This document shows, piece after piece, positions 3,529-43,718 of a stretch of DNA of 64,000 bases. Source of the stretch: a virus. The stretch lies in the IMG/VR virus record IMGVR_UViG_3300029787_000001, positions 32,001 through 96,000 of that record; one strand, given 5' to 3'. The notes beneath the pieces are model-generated. The model saw only the letters and a program-made list of their open reading frames with translations, ran no database searches and had not been told where the DNA came from. The position numbers and the translations under genes are program-made. Position 1 is the stretch's first letter. Each line of letters opens with the position of its first letter.

Positions 3529-3565
3529 TCGCCCGGTTAAGTTACAAGAGTAAGGAGAGAGACAC

Positions 3566-3957
3566 ATGACCACTGACGAACTGCGACACAACTATGCCGA
3601 CGCCTTCATCGCCCTTGTGATGGATGGTGCTGAGGGAAGCGCCCTCGATGTTCATCACCGCGATGCGATCATTCTCGCACTACAGGATGCGATCGAGTTC
3701 TTCTCGGCGGCTGAATACGGCACCGAGATTTCTTAAATAAATCCTTGACAGCAGACGACCACCCGGTTAGATTAACAGAGTCCCAAGAGGACAAGGAGAC
3801 AAAGCAAATGAGCATCGAACTTATGCAGCAGATTTCTAACATTCTCACCACCACTATCCTTTTCTATGCCACCCTGATTGGCATGTGCTCCCTTGTCATT
3901 GTGCATGAGGCGCGGAAGTTCATCAATGGACTCCCGACTCCCCGTCAGATTTCTTAA
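3566..3957 (+). other. Two promoter-cassette ORFs (3566-3736, 56 aa; 3808-3957, membrane peptide)
   Basis: Each has its own promoter and RBS; both end in AGATTTCTTAAA. Confidence 0.6.
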
Positions 3958-4086
3958 AAAAACACTTGACAGCCGCTACCCTGTCGGTTAGATTACAGGG
4001 GTAAGGAGGAAGACAGCGACCTCCCGACGCAAAAAAAACGCACTTGACAAGCCGCGCCCTCCCGGTTACAATAGGAGGGACACCAC

Positions 4087-4163
4087 GGGGAGATAGCTCA
4101 ATTGGTCAGAGCATCAGTCTCATAAACTGCCGGTTCCGAGTTCAAGTCTCGGTCTCCCTACCA
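4087..4163 (+). tRNA. tRNA with CAT anticodon (Ile2 or Met)
   Basis: GGGGAGA/TCTCCCT acceptor, loop CT-CAT-AA, TTCAAGT T-loop, encoded CCA; own promoter at 4044. Confidence 0.9.
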
Positions 4164-4225
4164 TCTTAACACTATAGGTGTTGTCCCTACCTTAAAAGGG
4201 GCGCTCATAACTACAAGGAGAAAAT

Positions 4226-4429
4226 ATGAGTACCACTATCACCAGCAGCCTTATCCGCGAGGCAACCTTCGACGCCAACAGCCGCACGCTTACGGTCGTC
4301 CTCAACAGCGGTCGCGAGTACACCTATCAGGGTGTCGATCAGTCAGTCTACCAGGGTCTCGTCTCTGCTGACTCTGCCGGTCGCTTCTTCAACAAGAACA
4401 TTGTTGGTAAGTTCACGACCTCTTCCTGA
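4226..4429 (+). CDS. KTSC domain protein
   Basis: SSLIREATFD...LTVVLNSGREYTYQGV...SADSAGRFFNKNI. Confidence 0.85.
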   Translation: MSTTITSSLIREATFDANSRTLTVVLNSGREYTYQGVDQSVYQGLVSADSAGRFFNKNIVGKFTTSS

Positions 4430-4468
4430 TAAAGGAAAGCCCCGCCCCCGGCTTTGTAGGGGGCTCAC

Positions 4469-4544
4469 GCACCTATAGCTCAATTGGAAGAGCATCGGTT
4501 TTCTACACCGAGGGTTGAGGGTTCGAGTCCTTCTGGGTGTACCA
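4469..4544 (+). tRNA. tRNA-Arg(TCT)
   Basis: Full cloverleaf, TCGGT-TT TCT AC-ACCGA, CCA. Confidence 0.95.
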
Positions 4545-4597
4545 TTTAGCCGACTCTGGGCTTTATCAGAGAACAAATAAAAAGGAAACAGAAAGTA

Positions 4598-4750
4598 ATG
4601 CGTAACATTATGATTCTCGCAGCCGCCATCATGGTAGGTTGTGGAGACAAGGACGAGGACACTGGCAGCGACACTGCCGAGGCTCAGGACACCGACGATG
4701 GTGGAGAGCCAGAAGACACTGGTGGGGAAGACACCGCTGTCGTAGAGTAA
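4598..4750 (+). CDS. Small acidic lipoprotein (50 aa)
   Basis: MRNIMILAAAIMVG-C lipobox then DEDTGSDTAE...EDTGGEDTA; not in the ORF track. Confidence 0.7.
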   Translation: MRNIMILAAAIMVGCGDKDEDTGSDTAEAQDTDDGGEPEDTGGEDTAVVE

Positions 4751-4758
4751 GTAAGAAG

Positions 4759-4787
4759 CCGCTGGCACACCGGTTAAAGTGTGCCAC
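4759..4787 (+). repeat. Hairpin repeat CCGCTGGCACACCGGTTAAAGTGTGCCAC, copy 1
   Basis: Identical 29-mer at 4991-5019; 26-nt match at 21290-21315. Confidence 0.95.
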
Positions 4788-4799
4788 ACATGCTCACCA

Positions 4800-4985
4800 C
4801 CAACATAGGGTCCGAGTAGGTACAGGGAACTGGCTTCAGCGCTAATGCTGACTAAGATGATCCAGTAACGGAAACAACGCTCACCCGTGAGCGGGTCATG
4901 CTAATGATGTTGGAAACAATGTATAGGACAAGTTGATCACTTGTCCGAAAAGACGCCTAACAGAGATTAGGAGTGTCCCTGACAT
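4800..4985 (+). ncRNA. Candidate structured ncRNA between the two hairpin repeats
   Basis: No plausible ORF; at least six helices found by eye (see findings). Confidence 0.6.
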
Positions 4986-4990
4986 TGCAA

Positions 4991-5019
4991 CCGCTGGCAC
5001 ACCGGTTAAAGTGTGCCAC
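4991..5019 (+). repeat. Hairpin repeat, copy 2
   Basis: Identical to 4759-4787; ends 5 nt before tRNA-Gln. Confidence 0.95.
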
Positions 5020-5024
5020 TTTAT

Positions 5025-5100
5025 TGGGACGTGGCGCAATTGGTAGCGCATCGGTTTTTGGCACCGAGGGTTGTAGGTTCGAGTCCTACCGTCCCAGCCA
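5025..5100 (+). tRNA. tRNA-Gln(TTG)
   Basis: T1-A72, G73, loop TT-TTG-GC, CCA. Confidence 0.92.
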
Positions 5101-5266
5101 CTTAAGAGGAAATAACATGAGCACAGTAGAGTTATGTTTTGGAATTTTGATTTCTGCAACGGTCATTATTGCCGTGATTCAGTACAAACTTTCAGAGTCT
5201 CCCGATCGTCGTAAATAAAAACACTTGACACCCGCACCTCTCCGGGTTACAATAGAGAGGACACAA

Positions 5267-5352
5267 GCCAGCGTGGTGGAATGGTATACACAGCAGACTC
5301 AAAATCTGCCGGTCTTATGACCTTGCGAGTTCGAGTCTCGCCGCTGGTACCA
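5267..5352 (+). tRNA. tRNA-Leu(CAA)
   Basis: Long variable arm, CT-CAA-AA, A73, CCA; own promoter at 5225. Confidence 0.95.
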
Positions 5353-5375
5353 CTTTTCAAACAGGATAAAGCAAA

Positions 5376-5768
5376 ATGGGCATTTTTATCGTAACAGCAA
5401 CTCACACGGACGACGATTATAAGCGTCCCCACGTAAGCAGTGAAACTGCGATGGCCACTTCTCACGAAGACGCTGTTGTGCGTGCAGTAGAGTTCTATCT
5501 TGAAAGGCTCGATGGTGGCTATTCTTTCGATTACCACAATCCATCAGGGTTCAATAAGGTAATCGAGCAGCACCGAAACAGCCCACAGACTCTATTCTCA
5601 GCACTTTACGATTACTTTGAGAGCAACCCAGAAGGAATGTTTACTGGCGAGTTTGTCCCAGAAACCCTAAATGTGACCATTAGCGAAAACGAACACGTCC
5701 CGCTTGATACAAAGCCAATCCTATCTATGGTTGACGAGGTTTCTCGTTACATCAGAGAGGAAATGTAA
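5376..5768 (+). CDS. Hypothetical protein
   Basis: ORF between tRNAs. Confidence 0.6.
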   Translation: MGIFIVTATHTDDDYKRPHVSSETAMATSHEDAVVRAVEFYLERLDGGYSFDYHNPSGFNKVIEQHRNSPQTLFSALYDYFESNPEGMFTGEFVPETLNVTISENEHVPLDTKPILSMVDEVSRYIREEM

Positions 5769-5782
5769 CAATAGAATATTTT

Positions 5783-5858
5783 GGGTCTATAGCTCAATTG
5801 GCAGAGCATCGGACTTTTAATCCGCAGGTTCTGGGTTCGATTCCCAGTGGACCCACCA
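5783..5858 (+). tRNA. tRNA-Lys(TTT)
   Basis: Cloverleaf, CT-TTT-AA, CCA. Confidence 0.95.
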
Positions 5859-5877
5859 TTTAAAATAAGGAGAAGAG

Positions 5878-6402
5878 ATGTTTAAGAAAGTTTTGGCATG
5901 CATATTGTGCCTGGGGTTGTCAACAGCCGCATACGCTCAGGCGCCCGTAGCCGAGGATGCAGACGCATCTAAGATGGACTGGAATACTCGCAAGGGCATC
6001 CGGTTTGGATACAACTATGCAAACAAGGCAGATGAGTCAGACAAGCTTCAGAGCCCACACATGTTTGTGATTGGCTTTGAGATGCAGCAGACAATGGACG
6101 GCGATTCGTGGCTCGACTTGCTTTTTATTCAGAACTTGACCATCAGTGGTTTGGACCAAAGTGTTGTTCTTCCATCTGGAAACGCGCTTGTCGGATTTGA
6201 AATCAAAGATGCACTACAGTTGGCAGTGGGCGCTAACGCCACTATCGTTGATCCTTCTGATGAGGACCACTATGTACATCTTGTTACTGCGGTCGGGTGG
6301 ACGCAGGATGCGGGAATCTTCAGCGTCCCAGTTCATCTTATCTTTGTCCCAGATGTCAATGACTATTATAGGGTTGCAGTTACTACCGGGATTAACTGGT
6401 AG
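5878..6402 (+). CDS. Exported protein, probable small outer-membrane beta-barrel
   Basis: Signal peptide ending AYA, amphipathic strands, C-terminal YRVAVTTGINW beta-signal-like end. Confidence 0.55.
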   Translation: MFKKVLACILCLGLSTAAYAQAPVAEDADASKMDWNTRKGIRFGYNYANKADESDKLQSPHMFVIGFEMQQTMDGDSWLDLLFIQNLTISGLDQSVVLPSGNALVGFEIKDALQLAVGANATIVDPSDEDHYVHLVTAVGWTQDAGIFSVPVHLIFVPDVNDYYRVAVTTGINW

Positions 6403-6453
6403 TCATTGTAAATAACCGCAGGGAGGCACGGGTTTACAGGTGCCTCAACTTTT

Positions 6454-6528
6454 GCTCCCATAGTTTAGCGGTTAGAATGCCGGCTTTTCACGCCGGAGGT
6501 CGGGGTTCGATTCCCCGTGGGAGTACCA
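6454..6528 (+). tRNA. tRNA-Glu(TTC)
   Basis: CCGGC-TT TTC AC-GCCGG, CCA. Confidence 0.93.
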
Positions 6529-6533
6529 TTTTT

Positions 6534-6609
<76 letters not shown>

Positions 6610-6670
6610 CTTTCCACTTGACACCGTCAGCCCCTCCGGTTACAATAGAGGGGAGGCACAGAACACTTAT

Positions 6671-6745
6671 CGAGAACAACGCGCGGGGTGTGCGGCCAGT
6701 TTTGGGTACTGGAAGTGCCGGGTTCAACTCCCGGGTTCTCGACCA
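6671..6745 (+). tRNA. tRNA-Pro(TGG) with atypical D-arm
   Basis: CGAGAAC/GTTCTCG, A73, CCAGT-TT TGG GT-ACTGG, T-arm CCGGG/CCCGG, CCA; A at position 8 and non-consensus D-loop. Confidence 0.8.
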
Positions 6746-6774
6746 TTTAACCTTTATTGAGATTGAGATAACAA

Positions 6775-6996
6775 ATGAGCAAGATTAGTATCCCACTCAC
6801 ATCACTGCTCCTGGCAGGATGCCCAGTAGCAATGGCTTTCGATCAGCCCACACTACCAGAATGCGTAATCGATCGGTGTGAAGAAAAAGTTTGCACAGTC
6901 GAGACACCAGAGGGCACAGTCGAGATTGCCAAGAAGAGGCACTATCAAGAGGGCACGCCAGTTGTGTGTCCGCTTTGGCTGATTGACCCCCGGTGA
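6775..6996 (+). CDS. Small exported or lipoprotein, Cys-rich
   Basis: LLLAGC lipobox-like motif, CVIDRCEEKVC. Confidence 0.55.
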   Translation: MSKISIPLTSLLLAGCPVAMAFDQPTLPECVIDRCEEKVCTVETPEGTVEIAKKRHYQEGTPVVCPLWLIDPR

Positions 6997-7058
6997 CATT
7001 CCGTGACTTGACAGGCGCCCTCCAACGAGCTACATTACAAGAGTAACAGGGAGACAGA

Positions 7059-7444
7059 ATGTTTAAGGTCGGCGATGTCGTAAGAGGCAACACAGTTGAC
7101 ACCAGTCTATCAACTGCGTCCCAGAGAGCCTCCACTGGAATCATCACCAAGATCGATGAATGTGGTGCGATTTCGCTGTGTTGGCTTTTTGGTAAAGTCA
7201 AGTGCAAGGGCAAAGAGTTTGGCGGCTTTAGGAAACAAGAACTTGAACTGGTGAGCGAAGCATGAAAGTCGGTGACCTTGTGAAGTTTACTGCCGGGTTC
7301 GCTGGCGCTGAGCGCCGGCAACGCGGCATTGTCGTTTGTTTTGATAATGACAATGACCCAGTGGTTTTGTGGCTTGGTTCAGGGTGGAACGGCTACCGTG
7401 AGGCAAATTTTCGCAATCACATTGCAGTGCTTTCTGAGGCGTAG
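7059..7444 (+). other. Two coupled MKVGD-family SH3/KOW-like ORFs (7059-7265, 7262-7444)
   Basis: FKVGDVVR and MKVGDLVKF; both end in (L/V)(V/L)SEA. Confidence 0.7.
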
Positions 7445-7580
7445 CGAACTACTTATTGCCTCAAAGTAGGAGAGTAAAATGGACAGAGACCTCATGGCTG
7501 ATATCGGCGTAGTAGCCACAGTAATCAGCATGTTTTTCATTGTAACAATCTTTATGTGCTGATTGAAAACTATTTAGGTT

Positions 7581-8405
7581 ATGTGGCGCTCTGTTGTTTT
7601 AACCTTACTACTACAATCACAACCAAGTTGGCTGGAAATAGGCGACGCTCAATCGCGCTGTAGCCTCCAAGGTTGTCTTGTTGAGGCAACAACAACAAAG
7701 CCAATCCCACAAACAATCGAGAACATAGTAAAAGAACAAACATCGGTTTTCTATGAAGAAGACCGATTTTTTCTACATTATGATCTCCGCAAAAGGATTA
7801 GAGATTTCTTACAGGAACACCCAAACCAAACAAGATTCATCATTACAGGCTGGACTGATGGCTGCGGAGAACACGATTACAACAAAGAGCTATCCAGAAA
7901 GAGAGCAGATGAAGTTGCACGTTACATAATGCAACTTAGAAGGGGTGCTCTTGTAGAGTTGCGCTGGGTTGGAGAAGCAACTGGAAAACACACGATTAGA
8001 GCCCGTAGAGTGGATGTCGCTGTGCTGAAAAAAGCACAACAAACAATCACACCCCCCAAGATTATTTATGATTATTATTTGATCGATGCAAGTGGCTCTA
8101 TGTCCGGTCCTAAATGGAATAAGTGGACTAACGCTATCGCTTATTGGCGAAAGCCGACCTCCAAAGTTTATGTTTCTTCTTCTGGCTACATTCCTGCTTG
8201 GAGCATTCTACAAAACATTGGACCTTATGGTTCTACCGAGATTTGGCTGTCCTTGTGGAGCGTTCTTGATGAAATGAGCGCTGGGCAGACTTTGGTTGTG
8301 ATCAGCGACTTTAACTCTGAAGTTCCGCTTTCTGGACGAGAGCGTGAAAGGATCAGCCAGAAGGCACGCACCAGAGGGGTGAGGATCGACTACGTGAGAC
8401 TGTGA
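7581..8405 (+). CDS. Exported OmpA-like peptidoglycan-binding domain fused to a vWA-like domain
   Basis: ITGWTDGCG...NKELSRKRADEVARY...RRVD; LIDASGSM MIDAS and VVISD. Confidence 0.7.
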   Translation: MWRSVVLTLLLQSQPSWLEIGDAQSRCSLQGCLVEATTTKPIPQTIENIVKEQTSVFYEEDRFFLHYDLRKRIRDFLQEHPNQTRFIITGWTDGCGEHDYNKELSRKRADEVARYIMQLRRGALVELRWVGEATGKHTIRARRVDVAVLKKAQQTITPPKIIYDYYLIDASGSMSGPKWNKWTNAIAYWRKPTSKVYVSSSGYIPAWSILQNIGPYGSTEIWLSLWSVLDEMSAGQTLVVISDFNSEVPLSGRERERISQKARTRGVRIDYVRL

Positions 8406-8470
8406 CAAAGATCGTAGCGATTAGCCCTTGACAGACTCGACCCGGTCGGTTACATTATGAGGGAGGAGCA

Positions 8471-10143
8471 GTGGTGGAGCAGATTTCGTTTGTTATCCCC
8501 TTTGGCGACACCAGCGACCCCGAACAGATCGCCGCCCGCATCGCCAAAGAGCTACAGTTTCTCTCTTGGTTTGTGAAACAAGAAGAAAAGAATAATGACG
8601 ACGATGGCGTCGCAGCAACAACATTTACTTTGTCCGGCTGGACTACAAAATGGCAGGTAGAATGAAAGTAGCAGAACTAAAGGTCGGAGAACTTTACAAG
8701 ATTCGCTCAGATCGAGAGACACATGTCGCTATTCGGCGTGGATTTCTTGATGTTCATTTGGGCAGTGGGCTTTTCCAAACCGAAGGCGCAAAGATTCGCC
8801 CAATGGACCATCTTATCTATCTTGGACAAGATCGCCACAACACACGCTGGGTCAACTATCGTGGCAAGAAGCTGCGCGCCTATCCCAACATCTGGCAACA
8901 CATTACGCTACTGGAAGAGGGATGAAGACGGGCGACTTGGTAAAAGATGAGCACTATGGTGTTGGGATTGTTATCGAAGACTGGAAAGAAGACACTACCC
9001 ACTTAAACTGGCGAATCTACTTTATGCAAGATAGTACGTTGCTGCATGTGTGCGAAACTACAAAGTGTTTTATCGAGGTGCTCAGTGAAAGTAGGTGATT
9101 TTATCCAGTCCTCAGCGTTTGTTGATCAGAACGGAATCATTCTGGAAACTGATGTTATCTCAAACCACCCGGATAATGAAACTTGGTTTCTTGTCCATTG
9201 GTTTACGACGATGTCCGGTCTCTCAATGAAAAAGGGTCGTCAAGAATGGCTGAGATCTTGGGAAATCGAACTGCGTGACTTGACAGATGCCTCCCAGCGA
9301 GCTACATTCCAAGAGTAAGAGGAGACAGAATGGCTAACGGCTATGCCCTTTTTAAGAGCCTTCATCCTGTCGGCGGTCTCTATCGCTACAAGGCGCCGTA
9401 TGCTCCACAGGGCTTAAACCCTTGGAGTGACGGCAAGGTCTATCTCCTAACAAAGTGGGAAAGACCAGAGGGCATAGACAAAAAGTCCCCTCTTCTCAAC
9501 GCTTTCTTCCTTGTTAATGGAACGGAGCATTGTGTTGACATTTCTTTCTTCAAGTATCTTAAGGCAGTAGAATGAAAGTCGGTGATCTGGTAAAGTATGC
9601 TTCAAATGATTCACCACTGGGTCTCTTTAGACGGAGCGGCGGCATTGTCACTGCCCAAAATAACAATCTTTTTGGTACTATTGTTTACTGGTTCAGAGAT
9701 AAACAGCGTACAGAAGAACAGGAAAAATACTTGGTGGTGATCAGTGAAAGTAGGTGATTTGGTAAAGCGGAAGACCCCTCCACCTCCAATGGGCTCCATC
9801 TGGAAAGGAATCATTATTGGAATGGGAGAAGAAAGCAACTTTGAGTGGATGGTTTACGACTTCTACGAGTCTTTTATTTGGTACGCCGATGCCGACGAGT
9901 TGGAGGTGATCAGTGAATGTGGGTGATTTGGTAATGTGGAGGCATCCAGGCGATCGCAGCAAGCCAGAGTTTGGAATGATTATTGCGTTGCGTCCTTATC
10001 TGAAGCCACGCTTGGAGATCAAAGTTGTTGATCTTTGTGGAGAGCGCCAAGGCGGCACAGACTGGTGGGATGCGGGAGACTGGGAGGTAATCTCAGAAAT
10101 AGACTTGACAGATGACGCTGAACCGGCTACATTAAAAGAATAA
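8471..10143 (+). other. Translationally coupled tandem of 8 small ORFs, mostly KVGDLV family (8471-8665, 8662-8925, 8922-9098, 9085-9318, 9330-9575, 9572-9757, 9744-9926, 9913-10143)
   Basis: Overlapping starts and stops, repeated junction TCAGTGAAAGTAGGTGATTT. Confidence 0.75.
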
Positions 10144-10152
10144 GGAGACACG

Positions 10153-10836
10153 ATGGACTTGACCGATGAACAGATCGTCACGCGCTTGGGTGCTGTCAAG
10201 AGCCTGCCGACTTGCACTCAGTGGGCTACTGGTTTCGCTGAATCGATCATCGAACAGAGCAGCAAGGGTCGGATGCTCTCCGACCGACAGAAGGTGATCT
10301 GCTATAAGATCCTGAAGGAAAACAACGAAGAAGCACAGCAGTCGCTTGCTAACTGGGAGACCGAGTACAAGACAAAGCACGAGAAACAAGCTAAGCAGAT
10401 TGCAAACTATTACAGCGCCCAGGCTGCTGGCTACTTTGGTGATGTGGTCAAGGTTGTCTTGGCTGACGAAGTTCCCCCACGCGCCAAGTACCTTAAAATG
10501 CGTAACAACAAGTACGCAAAGAAGGTTCTTTCTGAGCTTGAGCGCAAGCCGCGCTTTAGCACAGATGATCACATCGTCCCAAATAGCAAGTTTCTTGCTG
10601 GCTATTCCCATAGCATGTCTATGATGGAGACTCGTGAAGGAAGGGCTCCAGCCAGCGCAGTTCGAGCGGACTTCAAGAGGCGCGGGGGAATCATTCTTTT
10701 TGTGGACGACAAGATTAAGTCTGCTGCCAAAGGTTCTAAGCGTTACCTTGTGTTGCCTTTTGGTTCTGCTGAGACTTACTGGTGTGAGGAGAGGTACCTC
10801 AAAATCAAGCCAAAGGCAAAGAAGGTGAAAAAGTGA
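10153..10836 (+). CDS. Hypothetical early protein
   Basis: Own promoter at 10105 and RBS. Confidence 0.7.
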   Translation: MDLTDEQIVTRLGAVKSLPTCTQWATGFAESIIEQSSKGRMLSDRQKVICYKILKENNEEAQQSLANWETEYKTKHEKQAKQIANYYSAQAAGYFGDVVKVVLADEVPPRAKYLKMRNNKYAKKVLSELERKPRFSTDDHIVPNSKFLAGYSHSMSMMETREGRAPASAVRADFKRRGGIILFVDDKIKSAAKGSKRYLVLPFGSAETYWCEERYLKIKPKAKKVKK

Positions 10837-11256
10837 GAGTTTTGCCTGTTCCGCCTGTCGTGTTTGTTCCAAAAAAGACGGATAAGGTCCAAAATGACCC
10901 TGAACGTCGCAAGATCAAGAAGAAAAAGGCTTGACGGCTGACGATCGGTAGGTTATGTTATTGGAAAGGGAGCGAGCCGCGTTCCTTGCGAGAACACAAA
11001 AACAAAAAGAGGTGAATCTTGTGCTGGACCGCTATTGTTGTTAATGAAGAAGGAGGCTTCAGCCATTCTTTCTCTTTTATTGGCTCTCACGACAAGAGAG
11101 TAGCTTTTGAAGACGCACAGAGTCAGACCCCTTTATTGGTGGTCGCGATCGTCGCTGGCGATCATCCCGTCTACAACCCTGTTCTCGACTCGTGACATTT
11201 GGTGACTTGATCTTCTGACGCAACCGGTTACATTATAGAAGAACCAAGGAGAGCAC

Positions 11257-12096
11257 ATGCGGTGCGGATATTGTTATCAGGAGGGACACAACAAGCGGAC
11301 GTGTCCCGCCCTTACCAAACGACTGAAGGAGCGCCACGATCACGACATCGAGGCGGGTCATACAAATACTTGGGCGATTCAACGATACAAAGATCGGATC
11401 GCCCCCAAGGGCAAGAAGGTCAGCAGCCAGCAGTGTGGCTATTGTGGAGAATATGGCCATACTCGACGCAAGTGCGAAATGCTCCGAAAGGACAAGGAGT
11501 GGTTTGTTGTTCATCACAATGCTCACCTGCGCGTAGCACATGATTACATTGTGCAAAGCCCCGTTGGTATTGGGTCACTTTTCGGGTGGAAGAAGCAAGA
11601 ATACAACTACAATACTGGCGAGTATGATACCAGCCACGAAATGTTGGTGCTTACTGGCTTCTCGGTGGCTCCAGTTATCAAGCAGGATGGTTTCAAGATT
11701 CTTGCTACTTTGCAGCACCCGAACAAAGGTTGGAAGCAGACGATCGATGTCCGTCAATATGTCCGCAACCCCGAATACGCGACAAGTTGGCGTTCTGAAC
11801 CGACCCTCCTGTCTCCTTCTCGTGGCGTTGTTCCCTCAGACTGGATTGGGGGCCAAAGTATCACACTTGATGCTGCAAGCAAACTTGACTACTTCAAGCG
11901 CATTGGCAGAAAGAACGACGATCGTCGTGACTGGGCTTTCAACAACATTGATCGCACCCGCGAGATCATCAAAAAGTATCCTCCTTCTGCTGATGACCGA
12001 TACGACCATCATGGTCGCGCCAAGGCAGAGTTGGCAGGATACACGCCCGAACACAATCGTGTCAAGTTGTTCGAGGACTTCAAAAGTGGGGAGTAA
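11257..12096 (+). CDS. Double CCHC zinc-knuckle protein, paralog 1
   Basis: CGYCYQEGHNKRTC and CGYCGEYGHTRRKC. Confidence 0.8.
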   Translation: MRCGYCYQEGHNKRTCPALTKRLKERHDHDIEAGHTNTWAIQRYKDRIAPKGKKVSSQQCGYCGEYGHTRRKCEMLRKDKEWFVVHHNAHLRVAHDYIVQSPVGIGSLFGWKKQEYNYNTGEYDTSHEMLVLTGFSVAPVIKQDGFKILATLQHPNKGWKQTIDVRQYVRNPEYATSWRSEPTLLSPSRGVVPSDWIGGQSITLDAASKLDYFKRIGRKNDDRRDWAFNNIDRTREIIKKYPPSADDRYDHHGRAKAELAGYTPEHNRVKLFEDFKSGE

Positions 12097-12187
12097 GATC
12101 CGCACGCTGGCTTTCGCCCCCCTGTATGTAGCAGGGTGGGCGATCGTCGCTGGCGATCATCCCGTCTACAACCCAGACATCTCGTGA
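12086..12187 (+). CDS. 33-aa membrane peptide coupled to paralog 1
   Basis: GTG overlapping the upstream gene end; SKIRTLAFAPLYVAGWAIVAG homologous to the 13069 ORF. Confidence 0.45.
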   Translation: MGSKIRTLAFAPLYVAGWAIVAGDHPVYNPDIS

Positions 12188-12260
12188 CAAAGATCGTAGC
12201 CGATCAGCCTTGACAGATTGAATGTGAGCGGTTACATTATCTGAGTAATGAGGAGGAAGC

Positions 12261-13076
12261 ATGGCACGCTGTAGTTACTGTTACCAACATGGGCACAACA
12301 AGCGCACCTGTCCGAAGTTGACCGCCAAGCTGAAGGAGCGTGCGGACGCAGCAATCGCTGCTGGCGACCCTGACGCATGGGTGGTCGAGAAGTACAAAGA
12401 GCGTATCGCGCCAAAGAAGAAGAAGGGGCAGAAGCTCAGCAACATGGTTTGTGGCTATTGCTTTGACGTAGGGCACACTCGCCGCAAGTGTGATGCCATG
12501 GAGAGAGATAAGGTCATTTACGAAAAGCACCATAACATGGTCTTGCGGGTCGTCCGCGATTACATCTCTTCGTGTCCGATTGGCATCGGATCTCTCTTCA
12601 GCCAGAGTCGCGATGTTTGGACAGACACGGGATATGAGAGAAAAGAACGAAAGCTGGTAGTGGTGGGCTTTGACATTAGCAGTGATCTAATGATTTTCAA
12701 CCCGCGCCCTTGGCTGGAAATGATTGACTTTGTCACAGGTGAGAAAGTTCCCAAGAGCCTGCGAGCCTTTACTTCTGGACGTGGCGACACTTCCTACTAC
12801 AACCCAGTAAGATTGATTTCCGCAGAAGCGAGTCCGATCCCTGATGATTGGGTTGAAAAGAAGATGGTAAGAATCGAAATGCTTGCAAAGCACAGGTACT
12901 TTAAACGCTCTGGAAACAAGTCAGATGATTGCCGTGAGTGGGCTTTTAACACCATAGAGCGGTACGAGAAGTGTACTCCCGATAGCCCCACCTATGCTGA
13001 AGCCCAGCGCAACCTCGCGGCGTGGTCTGAGAAGTCTATCCGTGAAAACATTATCAAGATTCATGCCCATGCGTAG
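12261..13076 (+). CDS. Double CCHC zinc-knuckle protein, paralog 2
   Basis: CSYCYQHGHNKRTC and CGYCFDVGHTRRKC; similarity to paralog 1 extends to YFKR.G.K.DD.R.WAFN.I. Confidence 0.8.
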   Translation: MARCSYCYQHGHNKRTCPKLTAKLKERADAAIAAGDPDAWVVEKYKERIAPKKKKGQKLSNMVCGYCFDVGHTRRKCDAMERDKVIYEKHHNMVLRVVRDYISSCPIGIGSLFSQSRDVWTDTGYERKERKLVVVGFDISSDLMIFNPRPWLEMIDFVTGEKVPKSLRAFTSGRGDTSYYNPVRLISAEASPIPDDWVEKKMVRIEMLAKHRYFKRSGNKSDDCREWAFNTIERYEKCTPDSPTYAEAQRNLAAWSEKSIRENIIKIHAHA

Positions 13077-13278
13077 CAAGATCCGCTCTGCCTTGATCGC
13101 CCCCCTGTTTATCGCAGGGTGGGCACTCGTCGCGGGTGTCGTCGTGGTCTGCTCTTTCGCCAAGTGCGACAAGTCGAGACAAAAAAAGAGTGGCAAAGAT
13201 CCGCCAGACGGTTACATTACAAGAGCAACAGGGAGAGAGCATGGGAGCGAAGTTTACACTTGTCCTCGACACGGATGA
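13069..13278 (+). CDS. Small membrane protein coupled to paralog 2
   Basis: MRSKIRSALIAPLFIAGWALVAGVVVVC. Confidence 0.45.
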   Translation: MRSKIRSALIAPLFIAGWALVAGVVVVCSFAKCDKSRQKKSGKDPPDGYITRATGREHGSEVYTCPRHG

Positions 13279-13504
13279 CCCACAGGGTCTTCGCGATGCG
13301 CTGGACATCGCCTTACTGCTCAACAAGAACCACGGCACCGGCTACGAGTCGAGGATGCCGAAGGCAAAGATTGGAAAGATCGCCCTGATCAAGCTGGTTC
13401 GCACCGTCGCGAAGCGGGTTGAAGAGGGAAAGCAGAACGCCTCCCTCCACTCTTCCAAGAACTTTGTGGATGAAAGGTGGGATCATTTGGTTCACAACTC
13501 TTAG
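13241..13504 (+). CDS. Protein with a ribosomal L7/L12 C-terminal-like motif
   Basis: GKIALIKLVR...SLHSSKNFVD versus the L12 pattern KIxVIKxVR...GLKEAKDLVE. Confidence 0.4.
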   Translation: MGAKFTLVLDTDDPQGLRDALDIALLLNKNHGTGYESRMPKAKIGKIALIKLVRTVAKRVEEGKQNASLHSSKNFVDERWDHLVHNS

Positions 13505-13512
13505 GAGAAAGA

Positions 13513-13722
13513 ATGGCTCGCATCACTATTGGATCACTTGTCCGTCACCGAGTTTTCGGAGAACTTGGAATCGTCATCGAGCACACGATGTACGATGGCG
13601 ACTGGGGCGGTTTCCGCGTCAAGTTCAACAGACCCGTGAACCGTGGCGCTACCAAGAATCTGAAGATGCTCTTCGATCGTGCCGATCGTTGGGAACTCGT
13701 CTCAGGTTCCGACAACCAGTAA
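13513..13722 (+). CDS. SH3/KOW-like small protein
   Basis: IGSLVRHRVFGELGIV. Confidence 0.6.
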   Translation: MARITIGSLVRHRVFGELGIVIEHTMYDGDWGGFRVKFNRPVNRGATKNLKMLFDRADRWELVSGSDNQ

Positions 13723-13922
13723 CAAAGATCGTAGCAGAAAGTGCTTGACAGATCGAGCCCGTCAGGTTACATTACAAGGGTGAGGGAGACGATAGTCGTT
13801 TCCTCCGAGAACTGAAAAAGATAAATAAAAAAACTGCTTGACAAACATCGGCAGAGTAGTTACATTATAGGGGTGAGAGGGATAGACCTTCTCACCAAAT
13901 AACAAGAGAAAGAGAGTTCAGC

Positions 13923-15005
13923 ATGGCGTTCGACTTCGCAACCTTCCTGACCACCGTTCCCTGCATCCTCGATGCCAAGCTCCCCGTGCTGGTCCGTGGT
14001 CGCCACGGCGTCGGCAAGTCCGAGGTGGTGTACAGCATCGCCAAGGAGCGCGGGCTGCCTGTTGTGGAGCGCCGCGCAAGCCAGATGACCGAGGGCGACC
14101 TCCTTGGTCTGCCTGACACTGCCGACCTCTCCGATGGTCGCAAGGCTACGACGTGGAACGCCCCAGACTGGCTGGTGACGGCTTGCACTGAGCCTGTGGT
14201 CCTCTTTCTCGACGAGGTTGACCGCGCTACGATGGAGGTCCGTCAGGGTCTCTTCGAGCTTACTGACAGTCGCAAGATCAACGGGTGGCACCTGCACCCT
14301 GAGACCCTGATCGTCGCTGCCGTCAATGGTGGTGAGCACGGGTCGCAGTACCAAGTCGGTGAGATGGACCCGGCTGAGTTGGATCGCTGGACTGTGTTTG
14401 ACGTGGAGCCCTCCGTCGAGGATTGGCTCTCATGGTCCTCCGGCAAGGTCGATGGTGTCCTGTGGGACTTCATTAACGGCAACCGCCAGCACCTTGAGCA
14501 CACCGACGACTACGAGCCCAACAAGGTTTACCCGTCTCGTCGTTCTTGGGTTAGGTTTGCTCGCACTGTCGAGCCTCTCGCCCTGTTCGCTGAAGAAGCC
14601 GACCGAGACCTGCTTCTCAACCTTGCCACTGGCTTCGTTGGCTTTGAGGCTGCCGTGTCTCTTCGTGATTTCGTGCAGAAGTACGAATATCAGGTCAGCA
14701 TCGCAGACCTCCTCGATGATGGCTCTTTCGACAAGATCGAGAAGTGGGGCATCAACGACCACGCTGCTATGGTTGAGAAGATGGAGCACGCCTCCACTTT
14801 CAGCGAGACCCTGAGTGACTCGCAGGTTACCAACCTTGCAACGTGGTTTGTCTCCATGCCTTCCGAGATCTGCATGAAGCTCTGGTCAGCGATCGGCGAT
14901 TGTGAGGACGAGAACGGCACTAACGCCATTCGTCTCCACAAGGCTACCGCCGCAGACGGCACCCGTGTGAGTGAGCACATGGTCACAATCCTTCGCGGGT
15001 CGTGA
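13923..15005 (+). CDS. MoxR-like AAA+ ATPase
   Basis: GRHGVGKS Walker A, VLFLDEVDR Walker B, MDPAELDRW Arg finger, PSRRSW sensor II. Confidence 0.88.
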   Translation: MAFDFATFLTTVPCILDAKLPVLVRGRHGVGKSEVVYSIAKERGLPVVERRASQMTEGDLLGLPDTADLSDGRKATTWNAPDWLVTACTEPVVLFLDEVDRATMEVRQGLFELTDSRKINGWHLHPETLIVAAVNGGEHGSQYQVGEMDPAELDRWTVFDVEPSVEDWLSWSSGKVDGVLWDFINGNRQHLEHTDDYEPNKVYPSRRSWVRFARTVEPLALFAEEADRDLLLNLATGFVGFEAAVSLRDFVQKYEYQVSIADLLDDGSFDKIEKWGINDHAAMVEKMEHASTFSETLSDSQVTNLATWFVSMPSEICMKLWSAIGDCEDENGTNAIRLHKATAADGTRVSEHMVTILRGS

Positions 15006-15008
15006 TTC

Positions 15009-15444
15009 ATGGAGCCTGCCCTCCGGGTCGGTGATCTGGTCACCCCTGCCAGTGCTACAAGTCCTGCCTTCAAGCAGAAGCACGGGTTCGGGGTGATCAT
15101 CGAGATCGATCGCAAGGATTCCTGGGATGTTATCGTCTACGTTGTAAAGTTCACCAAGTCGCAGCGCATCTATAGGTTTAGTTTCGATGGTGTGAGGCGT
15201 TATGAATAGGACCGACAACATTAAAGAAGGTGACCTTGTTGTCCGCAGAGGAGACAAAAAGCCCTACATTGTGTTGGAGGTCAAGAGATATCAAAGAAAA
15301 GTCTACGGAGCAGGACCATCGGGAAATCGCAGAAAGAAGTTCTTACTACTTTCTCCTGACGGGCGGCAAAGTTGGAAGATTGACACAGCGATGAAAGTTG
15401 AGTTTTATCTGCCCGGTAGCCCCTACTTCGATGACATCCGTTGA
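15009..15444 (+). other. Two KOW-like ORFs (15009-15209, 15202-15444)
   Basis: LRVGDLVT and IKEGDLVVR. Confidence 0.65.
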
Positions 15445-15514
15445 CAAAGATCGTAGCCGTCCAGCCTTGACAAACAGGGCTGGGCGTGTTACATTATAGA
15501 AGTAAGGAGGCACC

Positions 15515-16747
15515 ATGCCTGACAACAAGAAGCCATTTGACCTAAACCTGCACACAGCGCGGCTTCTCATGAGGGAACCATTTTTTGCTGCACTCTCACG
15601 GCGCATCGACAAGATCCGCACTGACAGTGTGCCGACTGCCGGTGTGCGGGTCAACCCTGACACCGCTCAGTTTGAGCTTTTCTACAACCCAGACTTCATG
15701 AGTTCTTTGTCTGACGACCACAAGATGGGCGTGCTCATGCACGAGTTCTATCATCTTGTTTTCGAGCATGTGACGACTCGCAAGCCAGAAGGCGGCATTC
15801 GCCAGATCGATAACATTGCCATGGATCTCTCGATCAACGGCATCTCCGAGATGCGTGGAAAGTTGCCCTGTGAGGCTTCTCCCGGTCCCGTCGTCACTCC
15901 CGGCGGTGAGCCGATGAAGGCGTGTCTGCCCGGCGAGGGCAAGTTTGCTGACCTGCCCGCCAATCAGACCTATGAGTGGTACCTCGCTGCTCTTGAGAAG
16001 ATGCAGGAAGAGGCAGAGAAGAACGGCGAGGGCAATCCTTTCGGTGACGCTGACTCGTTCGATGACCACGACGGCTTCGGCGAGGGCGGTGGCAATCAGG
16101 CAGCCAACGAGATCGCGAAGGAGCGCATGAAGGATGCGATCCGCAAGGCAGCAGAAGAAGCCGACAAGGCGGGCTCCTGGGGCTCCGTGTCCTCCTCGAT
16201 GCGGAAGTCTATCAAGGAGCGTCTCGCCACGAAGGTAGATTGGAAGAAGATGCTTCGCTACTTTGTACGCACAAGTCAGCGCGCCGACAAGCGGTCTACT
16301 CCGCGTCGTCTCAACAAGCGGTTCCCAAAGATTCACCCCGGCAAGCGGGTGCGTCGTCAGGCAAAGATCGCCATCTCCATCGACCAGTCCGGTTCTGTGG
16401 ATGATGGGATGCTCGCTGCGTTCTACTCTGAGTTGGACAACCTCGCACAGTTTGCCGAGTTTACTGTCATCCCGTTTGACACGGAAGTTGCGACCGACAA
16501 GGTTTATGTGTGGAAGAAGGGCGAGCGCCGGAAGGCTGAGCGTGTCCTGCATGGCGGAACCTGCTTCGATGCCCCCACACGGTTCGTCAATGATGGCAAG
16601 TTCGACGGACACATCGTGCTCACCGACATGATGGCTCCCAAGCCAATCGCCAGCAAGTGTCAGAGGATGTGGATGACGACCAGCGAGTACGCCCACAACC
16701 CCTACTTTTCCACAAGAGAGGTCGTGGTGGCGATTGACCGCAAGTGA
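15515..16747 (+). CDS. Metallopeptidase-like (HExxH) N-domain plus vWA-like C-domain (DUF2201-type)
   Basis: GVLMHEFYH, IAMDLSIN; ISIDQSGSV, GGTCF, IVLTDM. Confidence 0.85.
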   Translation: MPDNKKPFDLNLHTARLLMREPFFAALSRRIDKIRTDSVPTAGVRVNPDTAQFELFYNPDFMSSLSDDHKMGVLMHEFYHLVFEHVTTRKPEGGIRQIDNIAMDLSINGISEMRGKLPCEASPGPVVTPGGEPMKACLPGEGKFADLPANQTYEWYLAALEKMQEEAEKNGEGNPFGDADSFDDHDGFGEGGGNQAANEIAKERMKDAIRKAAEEADKAGSWGSVSSSMRKSIKERLATKVDWKKMLRYFVRTSQRADKRSTPRRLNKRFPKIHPGKRVRRQAKIAISIDQSGSVDDGMLAAFYSELDNLAQFAEFTVIPFDTEVATDKVYVWKKGERRKAERVLHGGTCFDAPTRFVNDGKFDGHIVLTDMMAPKPIASKCQRMWMTTSEYAHNPYFSTREVVVAIDRK

Positions 16748-16832
16748 GACATCTGAAGACAAAGATCGTAGCGATTGACACTTGACAGACTCACCCCAGC
16801 AGGTTACATTACAAGAGTAACAGGGAGAGATA

Positions 16833-19800
16833 ATGTTTCTCAACATCCACCACCGCCACCTCCGTCCCCCGCCAGAGCCGGTGGTGTTCTTCTGCCGCCA
16901 CTGCGGGCACGGCTCCAAGAGGGACGGCGAGCGCATTCGCAAGGGCTCGTGGGCTGCTCACTGGGGCGGCGAGGGTTGCCCTGATTGCGGTACCTCCACT
17001 CCCCCCAAGAAGTGGTAAGCAAGTGACTGACGATGAAAGGATTGTAAATGCGTTTGTCAATCACTGGGGACTCACTTTAGAGGAAGCCCGCAAGGAGTTG
17101 ACAAAGGCAAAGGCGGACGCCAAGAAGAAGGCATGCCGACGAGAGGCTGAAAAGCAGTCACTCTGGAACAACGACAAGGATTGGGACTACTACCCAACCT
17201 TCCCAGAAAAGAAGGAACAATGAAGCATCCTTTCAAAGTTGGTGATCTTTTGCGAAGCAGGATGAACCGAGAAAACCTCGCCATCGTTTTGCAAGTTTAC
17301 ACAATGGACGGGCGCCCTTATTTGGATGTGAAATATCTCCGTGGCGATGTAGTCCCTTGTGTGCCTCTCCAGCGTTTTACCCTTATTTCGAGAGCAGAAC
17401 AATGAAGCCCATTCTCAAGACAATCGCCAAGGACATCATCGTCCTGTCCGCCCAGGCTCTCGCCTTTCGACTGGCAGCGCCCCAGGATCAGCAGCAGGAC
17501 ATCGTTTTCGCTGCTGTCCCAACGAAGGGCTCCACCGCGCTCAAGGCACTTCCCGCCGATGATGAGCCACAGGCACGCAAGGTCGGCTTCTGAGACATTC
17601 CAAGACAAAGATCGTAGCAGAAACACCTTGACAGATTGGCTCTAACAGATTACATTACAAGAGTAACAGAGACGGAGAAAGAACATGGAAGACCTGACCC
17701 CCCTGGACATCGCGCTTGAGACCACTGACCGAGTGATCGCAGCCATCACGACGCAGGCGACAGCAGCCCTGATTCCAGAGAACTCCGAGACGTTCCTGAT
17801 CGCCTACTGTGCCATGCTCGCTCCGGCAGAAGCATGAGCCAGGATCTCCGATTCCAGTGCGACGTGATTATGCTCTGCGCTGCTGGGATCTTGATCTGTG
17901 TCCTGCTCGCCTCAATCTTCCAAGAGTTCGGATGGACACTGTAGGCTGCCCCAGCCCGGACTATTTACTTTCGAGGTCCACCATGGCAAAGCGCAAGAAC
18001 AAGACCCCCAAGGGTCGCAACGTGATCGCCGTCGCTGCGATCACCCGTTCAGGCTGCAAGAAGCTCTGAGACGCTCAAAAAAAAGATAACAGAAAGACCT
18101 TGACAGATAAGACATAGCAGGTTACTTTGTAGAAGTAACAAGGAGAGCGAATGTTCACTATCGGCAATCACATCCAGTTCACCTCCACCGGCTGTCGCGG
18201 TCTGGTGGTCAAGATCACCAAGCACGAGGGCGGCTGCGATGGTCGCGGCACTGAGTTCGTTCACGTCCTCTGCGGACCTGACGCTGACGGCGAGCACGGA
18301 GGTGAGACCATCGGCTTCCCGCGCCTGCATCTCGAAATGGTCGCAGAGGTCCTGTAGACCAGAGATTTCAGAAACAATCAAAAAAGCCCTTGACAGAAAC
18401 CCCCTGCCGCATTACATTACAAGAGTAACAAGGAGAGTGAGAGATGACCACCAGACAGAAGATGGCTGCTGCCGTAGTTGTTGACTATGCCTGCTGGTTC
18501 TCGCTTGGCTTTGTTGTTGGCTACTTCGTACTCTGAACACAAAGAGGATAATATGACTCGCAATGATTCCGTCGTCTCCGCTTTCGCCTCCGGTCGCCCT
18601 GCTCGTGCAGGAGCACTCCGCACCGATGGTCGCTCCCTCTACTCCTACGATCTGAAGATCGCCGAGAAGACCCTCGCCGGTGTGGTCGTCAGTGACTACA
18701 CCTCTGGTGGTGGACTGTTCGTCTCGCAGACCACGAGCCGCCACGTCGGGCTCGCAAGGCGCGTCGCAGACACAGTGATGCTCCCAGAGCAGTTCAAGGC
18801 ACTCTTCGTCAAGATGCCCTTCTGATGGGCGTTCTCGTCTCACTCTGCGAACACCGCGCCAAGCTCCGGCAGGAGGAGCAGGCGAAAACGCAGGAAGAAC
18901 TTGATCAGTTGAAGATTCTGGTGCGTGCCTGGGCGAATGCCATGGGAGATCCAGAGGTCAAGCCCTACTTCCTTCCCCTTGACGATCACCTGACAGAAAG
19001 TCCTTGACAGATTAGGCTCCTCAGGTTACATTACATGCATAAGAAGGAGAGATGATGCTTCGCACTTCGCTGCCGCCCGGCACACTTGTCGAGATTCCTA
19101 CCGCGCATGGTCGTGGGTGGTTCCGCGCCCTCGTTCTCTCTGACTGGTTTCCGCGCGGTGGGGCTCACTGGTTCACGATCAGCGCCCTTGAAGCCGTCCC
19201 CGCCGCCTTTATTGAAAAGGGCGCGGTGCTCGACATCATGGACGACCCGCTCGATTTTCGTGTAGTTTCTGCTTGACAGAACACGATCACCGGACTACAC
19301 TACACGCACAAGAGGGAGAGAGAATGAAGAAGAAGAAGCTGACCCCAAGCCTCCACGGCGACATTGGAATCGACACCCGCTCCAACCGCCAGCCCCGCAA
19401 CGTGATCGGCTACGCAGCCGAGCCCGCTGGAATCAGCGGCGGTCGCGTGTGGCGCCTGCACAAGGGGCAGCGCAAGTCCTGGCTGTGTGACACGGTGTTG
19501 CTCTCGACTGCCGAGAACATGGCAGCAGACGGCAATCTCGCCATCACGGAGAAGTAGAAATAAAAGATCGCAGCAGAAAGTGCTTGACAACTCGCCCTGA
19601 GCGAGTTACATTACATGCAAGAAAGGAGAGCACATGAACGACCCCCGTGCGCAGTTCCGCGCACTTCGCCCGCCCACTGTTGGTTCGATGGTTATGCTGC
19701 CGGACCCGGACGAGACTGGCGAGACCCTCCACACTGTCATCCGTCGCGTTCGCGGCTCTGTGTACCGACTGGAGCACGATGACACCGGTGAGGAGGTCAC

Positions 19801-21038
19801 CGCCGACCTCGCCCAGAAGGGCACTGTCTGGACGGTCGGCTCGACCACCTACCGAATCGACTGAACATTCTTTCCCGTTTCCCCTTGACAAGTGGAGCGG
19901 GACAGGTTACATTACAAGAGTAACAAGAAAGGAGAGATAACAATGTTCCCCTACTTCCACCACTTCGCCGCTGTCATCTTCAACGATGTCCTCCTGAACC
20001 GCAACGATGCGGGTCTGCGGCAGAATCTCCGGTACCTCGCGCAGGACCTCGGCATCATCCCCGTCGATGACTGGGCGAGCAGCACCGACTGAGCGAACTT
20101 TCCTTCCACTTTCCCCTTGACAGAAGAACCCAGACAGGTTACATTACAAGAGTAACAAGAAGGGAGAGAAAAGATGAACCAGATCGAAGCCCTCGACGTG
20201 CTCACGATGCACGATCTCTTCGGAGACGGCAGGCGCGACACCCTCACCGCCGCCATCGCGGTGATCGAGCCCATCGCCACCCGCCGCGCCCACAACGGGA
20301 CCGGCGACAGCATCGACTTCATGCTGGAGATGGTGCAGGGCGCCCGCGAGGATCTGTCTCGCATGGCTCCGTGCCCGTCCGGTCGCTGGTAGCGCACACT
20401 GCTGAGAGGGCAGCGGGTTCGACTCCCGCACGGGTTAGCATCTGGCCGGCTGGTTGCTTCATGGGTTCGAGTCCCATGACCGGTAGCTCTGCACGGACCC
20501 GTAGGGCGGCGACTCCCTCTCACTTTCCTTCCACTTTCCCCTTGACAGACTGACCCTAACGGGTTACATTACAAGAGTGAGAGGGAGACAGACTCCCCTC
20601 CAATCCCCAAGCAAGTGAGTTGACACCATGGCTAACCTCTTCGTCCTGAACCTCGTCGGAACCACCGCCCCCCTCGCCGCAGACAAGAACGCCAACCGCC
20701 TGATCGCTCTCGCGGTCGATATGCTCGCAGGCGACAGTGCCCCGGAGCCGGTCGAGGTCCCCGACACCGACGCCCTCCGCGCTGCCCTGTTCACCCGCGT
20801 CGCCACTGGTGAGGTCTCCCCGGCAGACTGCGCCGCCGAACTGAAGGCAATCGATCAGCAGGTCGCTGACGCTGCGAAGGCTGCGAAGGCTGACCCGCCC
20901 GTGCTCTCGCTCGCTGGCACGCCGGCGTCCGCTGCGATGATTAAGAGGGCGTTTCGCGGAGCGGAGTCCGGCACGAGCGTGGAGGTCGCAAGCCTCGACG
21001 GCGAGCGCGTCGGTTCGATCACAATGTTTCGTTGTTAG
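16833..21038 (+). other. Series of small early ORFs, most with their own promoter (16833-17018 Zn finger, 17023-17223, 17220-17405 KOW, 17402-17593, 17685-17837, 17983-18069, 18151-18357, 18553-18825, 18825-19007, 19052-19276, 19324-19557, 19634-19864, 19943-20092, 20174-20392, 20628-21038)
   Basis: Promoter, GGAG and ATG spacing; C-rich third codon positions. Confidence 0.7.
20365..20500 (+). ncRNA. Candidate RNA with two tandem tRNA T-arms
   Basis: GCGGG-TTCGACT-CCCGC (20413-20429) and TCATGGG-TTCGAGT-CCCATGA (20459-20479) enclosed by TCCGTGC/GCACGGA. Confidence 0.6.
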
Positions 21039-21114
21039 GAATGTTCCGGGTCTGAGACTCCAAAAAAAGATAACAGAAAGCCCTTGACAGGTGAGCCCAT
21101 CCGGGTTACATTAT

Positions 21115-21290
21115 AAGGGTAACAAGCGACAAGAGGTCCGCGACATGAAAGGTCCGAACTGAACATTCATGCATAGGCTGGGAGGCGTCCCACCTGTGAG
21201 CAGTAGCAAGAGCGACGCACAGAGGTGAACCTGACCCGAACGGGAGGGAACCTGCCTCTTCAAACACGACAGCAATAGTCCAACCCAGCC
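21115..21290 (+). ncRNA. Candidate structured ncRNA A
   Basis: Promoter at 21084 with no RBS or ORF; GGCTGGG/CCCAGCC closing helix with nested stems. Confidence 0.55.
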
Positions 21291-21315
21291 CGCTGGCACA
21301 CCGGTTAAAGTGTGC
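21290..21315 (+). repeat. Hairpin repeat, copy 3
   Basis: CCGCTGGCACACCGGTTAAAGTGTGC. Confidence 0.9.
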
Positions 21316-21325
21316 TCCCCTTTCT

Positions 21326-21510
21326 ACGAGAGCCGATCACCTCGCGCCAACGAGAAGCATCGGAGACATTGCACAGGTTTGGCGACCTGTGACGTGTGGG
21401 GCATAAGGTGCCCCGATGGCTTGACCGAACCTCGCAACCCACGCCACCAACGAAGGCGCAGGAGCGACAAGTAGCCGGTCATCTCTGCGGGTTCAACTCC
21501 CGCCTCTCGT
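21326..21510 (+). ncRNA. Candidate 185-nt tRNA-like RNA with a kissing-loop insert (ncRNA B)
   Basis: 7-bp acceptor ACGAGAG/CTCTCGT abutting T-arm GCGGG-TTCAACT-CCCGC; loops CGCCAA and TTGGCG are complementary. Confidence 0.7.
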
Positions 21511-21604
21511 TTCCTTTACAGTCCGAGACAGCAAAAAAAGATAACCCTAACCCCTTGACAGACTAACGGCAGCGCGTTACATTACATGTAAGAAGGGAGA
21601 GACA

Positions 21605-40001: not shown

Positions 40002-40141
40002 GAATGGTGTTCTGCCCTGACCGGCTCGGCGGGGATTTTATGGTAATTGGGTCCATGCCTATCACGACCCATCGGAGTGCAAACCCGTAATTAAAATGTA
40101 AGCTAGCTGCGGTGAGCAAGAGACCCGCAACCGAGTCATAA

Positions 40142-43622: not shown

Positions 43623-43718
43623 ACCGCTGCATCGTCGGTAATAACGGTGGGTGGCTGCCGCACCAAACGTAGGCAGAGGTTTTCGGTTATCCTAAATTCT
43701 AGACACAAAACCGAACAT

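Follow-up and report, generated by a model that had tools for sequence, protein, structure and literature searches.

Introduction

The gene 32 operator of bacteriophages T4, T2 and RB69 contains an RNA pseudoknot; in T4 and T2, the single-stranded DNA-binding protein (SSB) gp32 binds this 5' pseudoknot and then the A+U-rich region over the ribosome-binding site (RBS) (PMC3014915). A definition of the CPK1 pseudoknot fold, to which such operators are compared below, has also been published (PMC11262651). Here, we describe a family of H-type pseudoknots that recurs in a 64,000-nt stretch of DNA, hereafter the window, which spans 32001-96000 in a virus record 191 kb long (IMG/VR IMGVR_UViG_3300029787_000001). 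The family is carried by an uncultured marine phage group, in which it stands behind particular genes and non-coding RNAs (ncRNAs). The open reading frames (ORFs) of the window include a gp32-family SSB gene adjoining a RecA-like gene, as well as genes whose products, as judged by eye, are similar to a capsid protein of the T4 type and to a sigma factor like gp55. The region 4087-6745 holds eight tRNAs amid strong sigma-70 promoters. No close cultured phage was found, the best full-length gp32 match being 33%.

Ribozymes resembling that of hepatitis delta virus (HDV), termed HDV-like, cleave at P1's first base (PMC4908430), and the theta ribozymes, minimal HDV-like ribozymes of gut phages, cleave behind phage tRNAs (PMC10879173). 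The exonuclease-resistant RNAs (xrRNAs) of eukaryotic RNA viruses are described as small pseudoknotted roadblocks that stop nucleases without protein (PMC8374639, PMC5760640). The xrRNAs block 5'-3' enzymes by a ring-like fold, whereas the element described here is a plain H-type pseudoknot on the 3' side, for which blocking is only a candidate property.

Results

A repeated element in the window is an H-type pseudoknot

A previous description of the window, the sequence-only reading, reported a hairpin repeated at 4759, 4991 and 21290, with variants at 6416-6446 and 4444-4464. The variants are present, and the three main copies are real: their 26-nt core is not expected by chance (0/100 shuffles, allowing up to 3 mismatches), and the first two are identical over 29 nt. 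The hairpin itself had to be redrawn. Since the stem's 5' flank can pair with the beginning of the loop, the element folds as an H-type pseudoknot, with crossing stems S1 and S2 and loops L1 to L3.

Covariance models cannot encode crossing pairs; the fold was assessed by pair counts and descriptors, with counts across relatives coming from related copies that are not phylogenetically independent. Two pattern scans in which the base before CCG was left free yielded 222 copies of class I, the most widespread class among relatives. When this base was compared with loop position 4, A was found with U (105), C (55) or U (10) with G, U with A (22), and G with C (13/13). This crossing S1 pair covaries as A-U, C-G, U-A and G-C and is paired in 187 of the 205 class I copies of fixed length, in which the five column pairs of highest mutual information were four stem-2 pairs and the crossing S1 pair. 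Across 92 distinct class I rows, 98.2% of cells were paired, a value reached in 0/500 shuffles and compared with 25-56% in slid controls.

Only one S1 pair varies within class I, while whole S1 helices are swapped between classes. Spacers selected by gp32 protein alone, without the motif, include S1 helices of unrelated sequence, and a Watson-Crick S1 of at least 4 bp was present in 42% of 65 such distinct spacers (shuffled flanks, 8%; swapped flanks, 11%). In stem 2, G-U wobbles occur in 32/92 rows at one pair, and six contigs (L125, L137, L106, L340, L341 and L346) have an extra hairpin inserted in L3, giving a three-stemmed form. These wobbles and insertions indicate an RNA rather than a DNA element. 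The repeated element is thus a 25- to 33-nt H-type pseudoknot whose two crossing helices show compensatory change.

The fold is of a known kind. CPK1 geometry (S2 of 6-7 bp, L1 of 1-2 nt and no inter-stem loop) fits the class II copies at 4757 and 4989 and those at 4050, 4436 and 5230, but not class I, with its 5-nt L1 and 1-nt L2. Like T4-type gene 32 operators and CPK1, the pseudoknot is H-type with stacked stems, an S2 of 6-7 bp, a short L1, A/U-rich RNA after it and a link to gp32. Unlike the operator, which lies 5' of gp32, it lies 3' of this gene and is found behind ncRNAs as well, its S1 frequently has no more than 3-4 bp, and class I has the longer L1. The structure is secure; the function we infer. 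Self-cleavage by the pseudoknot itself was rejected, there being no sequence core common to the classes.

No Rfam 15 family matched the pseudoknot at the gathering threshold or with a significant E-value. Among 185,579 cellular genomes, it was found in two short contigs of metagenome-assembled genomes, which are probably phage DNA. A literature search found no description of it, although one catalogue of candidate RNAs that may list the motif lay outside that search (PMC10690425).

In all, some 12 copies lie in the window, and sigma-70 promoters overlap four of them (Table 1). Scanned blindly for H-type pseudoknots, the whole genome yielded nine hits in non-coding sequence of the + strand, each in the tRNA cluster or at 21287; those at 3971, 4050, 4176 and 5230 were new, and a slightly relaxed scan added 4548 and 6623. 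At 5230, S1 has C-G in place of the A-U of other copies. The equivalent of the 4436 copy in the relative L006 doubles as a full promoter; in the window, the hexamers are gone and both helices are kept. The 4548 copy is also present in L006, as is the RNA that follows the 3971 copy.

Table 1. Pseudoknots and associated RNAs in the window
Feature	Position	Strand	Description
Pseudoknot	3971..4000	+	Overlaps promoter 3966-3994; ahead of a ~35-nt hairpin RNA
Pseudoknot	4050..4079	+	Overlaps sigma-70 promoter 4044-4072 (-10 within L3); tRNA-Met 7 nt downstream
Pseudoknot, sequence unrelated to other copies	4176..4202	+	Between tRNA-Met and KTSC ORF; no U-tract
Pseudoknot	4436..4464	+	After KTSC ORF 4226-4429; 4 nt before tRNA-Arg
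Short pseudoknot	4548..4571	+	S2 5 bp; between tRNA-Arg and ORF 4598
Class II pseudoknot	4757..4786	+	S1 4-5 bp, L1 1-2 nt, S2 7-8 bp, A-rich L3
Predicted HDV-like ribozyme	4792..4913	+	P1 6 bp, P2 7 bp, P3 3 bp, CC/GG P1.1, no real P4, 73-nt L3; predicted cut 5' of G4792
Variable multi-stem domain	4914..4988	+	Between ribozyme core and closing pseudoknot; ~1-170 nt among homologues
Class II pseudoknot	4989..5018	+	Closes ribozyme RNA; tRNA-Gln 6-7 nt downstream
Pseudoknot	5230..5260	+	Overlaps promoter 5225-5253; 6 nt before tRNA-Leu
Class I pseudoknot	6414..6446	+	S1 3-4 bp, L1 5 nt, S2 7 bp; after ORF 5878-6402, 7 nt before tRNA-Glu
Pseudoknot	6623..6653	+	Overlaps promoter 6618-6646; 17 nt before atypical tRNA-Pro
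Class II pseudoknot, 3-bp S1 register	21289..21316	+	Closes promoter-driven ORF-free RNA ~21119-21290; tRNA-like RNA 9 nt downstream
tRNA-like RNA, 185 nt	21326..21510	+	7-bp acceptor-like stem stacked on T-arm; folding z -3.6; putative RNase P substrate
Weak, tentative pseudoknot	43623..43649	+	Directly 3' of ORF 43116-43622 stop

The ~35-nt hairpin RNA at 4003-4035 is flanked by two promoter-overlapping pseudoknots and conserved in L006. The atypical tRNA-Pro at 6671-6745 is called by ARAGORN, yet falls below the Rfam tRNA threshold. Structured leaders that are unrelated stand at 40004-40140 and 43623-43717, ahead of tRNA-Ser and tRNA-Thr.

The position of the pseudoknot follows the RNA upstream of it

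The sequence-only reading took the element for a leader placed just before tRNAs and tRNA-like RNAs. The short gaps on which this rested hold, being 4-9 nt to tRNA-Arg, -Gln and -Glu and to the RNA at 21326, and so does the enrichment expected 5' of tRNAs in relatives: a pseudoknot lies upstream of 23/78 tRNAs that are first in their run (0 in shuffles) and downstream of 5/79, at loci picked partly by the motif. Since 55/78 have no pseudoknot, it is enriched before tRNAs, but tRNAs do not need it. Searches anchored on the neighbors tied it to the upstream RNA instead.

Among relatives, 203/288 copies sit between a stop codon and an RBS, and 19 precede a tRNA. The gap from stop to pseudoknot is mostly 6-14 nt, with a peak at 7-8 nt. 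The commonest upstream gene is gp32, which accounts for 122 of ~220 upstream ORFs; among the others are FKBP, Hc1 and cold-shock genes. A pseudoknot with an S1 of at least 4 bp was found just past the gp32 stop at 41/71 loci, and none in the 150 nt before the gp32 start (0/68 and 0/65 for the two stretches examined there), the position of the operator leader in gene 32. What follows the gp32 pseudoknot varies and may be recA, another ORF, a tRNA or a new promoter. Where genes are inserted between gp32 and recA, pseudoknots stand on both flanks. The gp32-recA spacer of G000, the genome that holds the window, has a canonical terminator and an extended -10 promoter-like site (L270:1630-1790) where most relatives have the pseudoknot, and its closest relatives are alike in this; in a relative at 89% identity, the terminator's place after gp32 is taken by a class II copy, of which the contig end leaves only the start. 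Thus, the pseudoknot goes with the upstream RNA whatever lies downstream, and a role as tRNA leader is not supported.

The copies that overlap promoters can be placed in the same way. With the -10 inside L3 and the start site where stem 2 ends, such a pseudoknot forms only in read-through RNA from upstream, and no convincing start site was found just 5' of the pseudoknot among the copies checked. The four complete relatives have few copies each (~1-3), mainly at the gp32-FKBP-recA locus, where the copies from the blind scan cluster in 3/4. A genome-wide class of promoters or terminators was rejected on these low numbers, from a blind scan that missed one known copy in G001.

The earlier proposal of a tag for RNA genes therefore needs division. 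A structured RNA element under selection is upheld, as is its linking of the ncRNA candidates with the tRNA cluster; specificity to RNA genes is contradicted by the many copies between a stop codon and an RBS.

A candidate HDV-like ribozyme RNA is closed by the pseudoknot

The two class II copies in the tRNA cluster bracket an RNA that looks like an HDV-like ribozyme. Its first part, 4792-4913, has the nested double pseudoknot topology with P1, P2, P3 and P1.1 in HDV order (77 homologues in this comparison), and ~80 homologues include compensatory P1 and P3 variants. It would be atypical, given a 6-bp P1, a J4/2 that is two nt longer and a large L3, which spans 7-131 nt across homologues; two of these have the canonical 7-nt L3 and 7-bp P1. 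A C is present at the catalytic J4/2 position, which the search pattern required. Rfam model RF02682 gave no hit on this RNA, nor did any other Rfam family match it.

Theta ribozymes share with this family the HDV topology, the setting in phage tRNA clusters and, for some members, a location a few nt past a tRNA 3' end. The present family differs in that its contigs, from IMG/VR and metagenomes, bear marine-type names, in its longer J4/2, shorter P1 and variable L3, and in being closed usually by the pseudoknot. Homologues lie in L351-L469, and some contigs have two copies. A pseudoknot closes the RNA in 86/90 homologues (2/270 in shuffles) and stands directly 5' of the ribozyme in 25/74. After those 86 closing pseudoknots come a tRNA (35), an ORF (13), a ribozyme (4), a promoter (4) or other sequence (30). 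Where a pseudoknot precedes, the predicted ribozyme cut falls 4-6 nt past it (26 cases). In the window, the 4757 copy begins ~7 nt past the stop of ORF 4598-4750 and ends 6 nt ahead of the predicted cut at 4792. RtcB-mediated ligation was rejected, as the genome is without RtcB.

Around the third class II copy, the region 21119-21290 is a structured, ORF-free, promoter-driven RNA with the pseudoknot at its end. The T-arm pattern of the tRNA-like RNA that follows had no exact match in IMG/VR. At 20390-20530, two T-arm-like hairpins lie in tandem 3' of a stop codon.

Tail sequence varies with the downstream feature

Class II pseudoknots have TTTT within 10 nt in 44/64 copies before an ORF or promoter versus 9/79 before a tRNA or ribozyme, a comparison in which short tRNA leaders shorten the interval searched and relatedness among copies inflates the P values. 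The U-tract is strongest ahead of promoters, and TTTT occurs in 0/26 copies that precede a ribozyme. In class I, the tail begins with A and continues with U-rich bases; at least 6 T in 8 nt are found in 22%, and a TTT start in 2%. The statement that the element lacks a U-tract was accordingly only partly right: the copy at 4991 was called terminator-like by a terminator scan, and U-rich tails are common in relatives.

The RNase E consensus is RN/WUU (PMC5222698). A match at +1 is present in 47% of class I tails and 6% of shuffled ones. With this match in 47% but a TTT start in 2%, the tails do not distinguish weak termination from cleavage by RNase E.

A proposed role as a 3'-end cap

On balance, we lean towards the view that pseudoknots of this family label the 3' end of the RNA preceding them and shield it, be this RNA the gp32/SSB mRNA, the mRNA of a nearby small gene or an ncRNA. 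Each locus would form the end a few nt beyond stem 2 by the route available to it: leaky intrinsic termination or, within the A-N-U-U-U tail, a cut of the RNase E type if an ORF or promoter is downstream, RNase P where a tRNA or tRNA-like RNA follows, and self-cleavage where an HDV-like ribozyme follows. Because RNase P or the ribozyme would cleave downstream of it, the pseudoknot would stay on the upstream product. With its short overhang, it would then stall host 3'-5' exonucleases, and the upstream RNA would outlast its neighbors. Three contig-level RNA runs with small word shares, which show neither ends nor levels, were kept out of the evidence.

A comparable arrangement exists in MALAT1 and NEAT1, in which an RNase P cut at the downstream tRNA-like element (mascRNA) leaves a protective fold, the 3' triple helix, on the upstream RNA. 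The parallel is one of analogy only: the fold is unrelated, the domain of life is another, and pseudoknot ends would also arise via termination or a ribozyme.

Some points weigh against a 3' cap. The 4176 and 4548 copies, which have no U-tract, lie between a tRNA and an ORF, where a cap makes little sense. With U's directly at the stem in so few class I copies, only weak termination would be expected. Binding by gp32 would also be compatible with the concentration of copies at its locus.

A bolder version, which we put forward tentatively and hold to be less probable, is that the pseudoknot blocks bacterial 3'-5' exonucleases without any protein and that, with the HDV-like ribozyme, it would form a natural cassette, with a 5' end made by the ribozyme and a knot at the 3' end, which makes freely exchangeable RNA domains into stable ncRNAs. 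To our knowledge, the 3' ends of bacterial and phage RNAs have been assumed to be guarded by plain hairpins. The several hundred natural variants collected here would place a pseudoknot in this guarding position, coupled with three end-making routes. If true, the 30-nt candidate nuclease block would be useful for RNA stabilization in bacteria. The analysis also brings to light an apparently uncatalogued family of putative HDV-like ribozymes with large L3 inserts.

Alternative roles for the pseudoknot

The pseudoknot could instead act on the RNA that follows it, by recruiting or positioning an endonuclease, be it RNase E of the host or an enzyme of the phage, or by shielding the downstream 5' end, and so free tRNAs, ncRNAs and cistrons. 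Such punctuation would accommodate the two copies between a tRNA and an ORF, the enrichment 5' of tRNAs, the RN/WUU matches at +1 and the pseudoknots on both sides of inserted genes. We nevertheless consider it unlikely, as the pseudoknot follows its upstream partner regardless of the downstream feature, most first-in-run tRNAs are without it, none precedes gp32, and a new promoter comes after several copies, with no convincing start site just 5' of the pseudoknot.

Binding by gp32, as at the operator of T4 gene 32, would have spare SSB nucleate on the pseudoknot and spread along the A/U-rich spacer, so as to repress the gene that follows (recA or FKBP) or shield the RNA end. The binding mode known from T4 and T2, the CPK1-like geometry of class II, the predominance of gp32 among upstream ORFs and the clustering at its locus in complete relatives all speak for such an operator. 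Autoregulation, however, needs the pseudoknot 5' of gp32, where none was found, and many copies precede tRNAs, ribozymes or promoters and have no RBS to cover, which makes this role improbable.

Intrinsic terminators and intercistronic stabilizing stem-loops such as REP elements resemble the pseudoknot in lying just past stop codons, in the U-rich tail and in that it can replace a terminator after gp32. It differs from them in its conserved crossing helix and in a U-tract that is displaced by A-N and largely lacking ahead of a tRNA or ribozyme. That it is simply a leaky terminator whose hairpin is further stabilized by S1 would explain why pseudoknot and plain terminator alternate after gp32, why the U-tract is strongest before promoters and why one copy was called by the terminator scan. 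We give this little credence, in view of the scarcity of U-tracts in class I, their absence before ribozymes and the read-through required at many copies.

A role in translation at the stop codon, through readthrough, recoding or blocked re-initiation, might be suggested by a pseudoknot start 6-14 nt past the stop, approximately the edge of the ribosome footprint; it is very improbable, since next-gene frames show no bias (64/55/67), the stops are mostly TAA and the pseudoknot is near-obligate after non-coding RNAs. An antitoxin decoy of the ToxI/CptI kind was rejected as having almost no likelihood, there being no tandem repeats and no Rfam hit. A DNA-level element, either a hairpin promoter or a sigma-54-like site, has a negligible chance of being correct: four window copies do overlap sigma-70 promoters, with a GGTTA common to 27 early promoters, and class II resembles a -24 box, but the stem-2 wobbles, the loop insertions and the same pairing from unrelated sequences oppose it, early ORF promoters outside the tRNA cluster gave no hit in the blind scan, and the sigma-54 site was set aside because the resemblance is confined to class II.

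Transcription of the early region

The 27 same-strand sigma-70 promoters, located at 3515-23300 of the window and elsewhere in G000, have the common GGTTA opening the -10 region and drive a long run of small early genes. The protein encoded at L152:1198-1959 (~98550-99310 of G000) had no Pfam or PHROG hit; it gave a weak Sigma70_r2 match and, by eye, is like T4 gp55.

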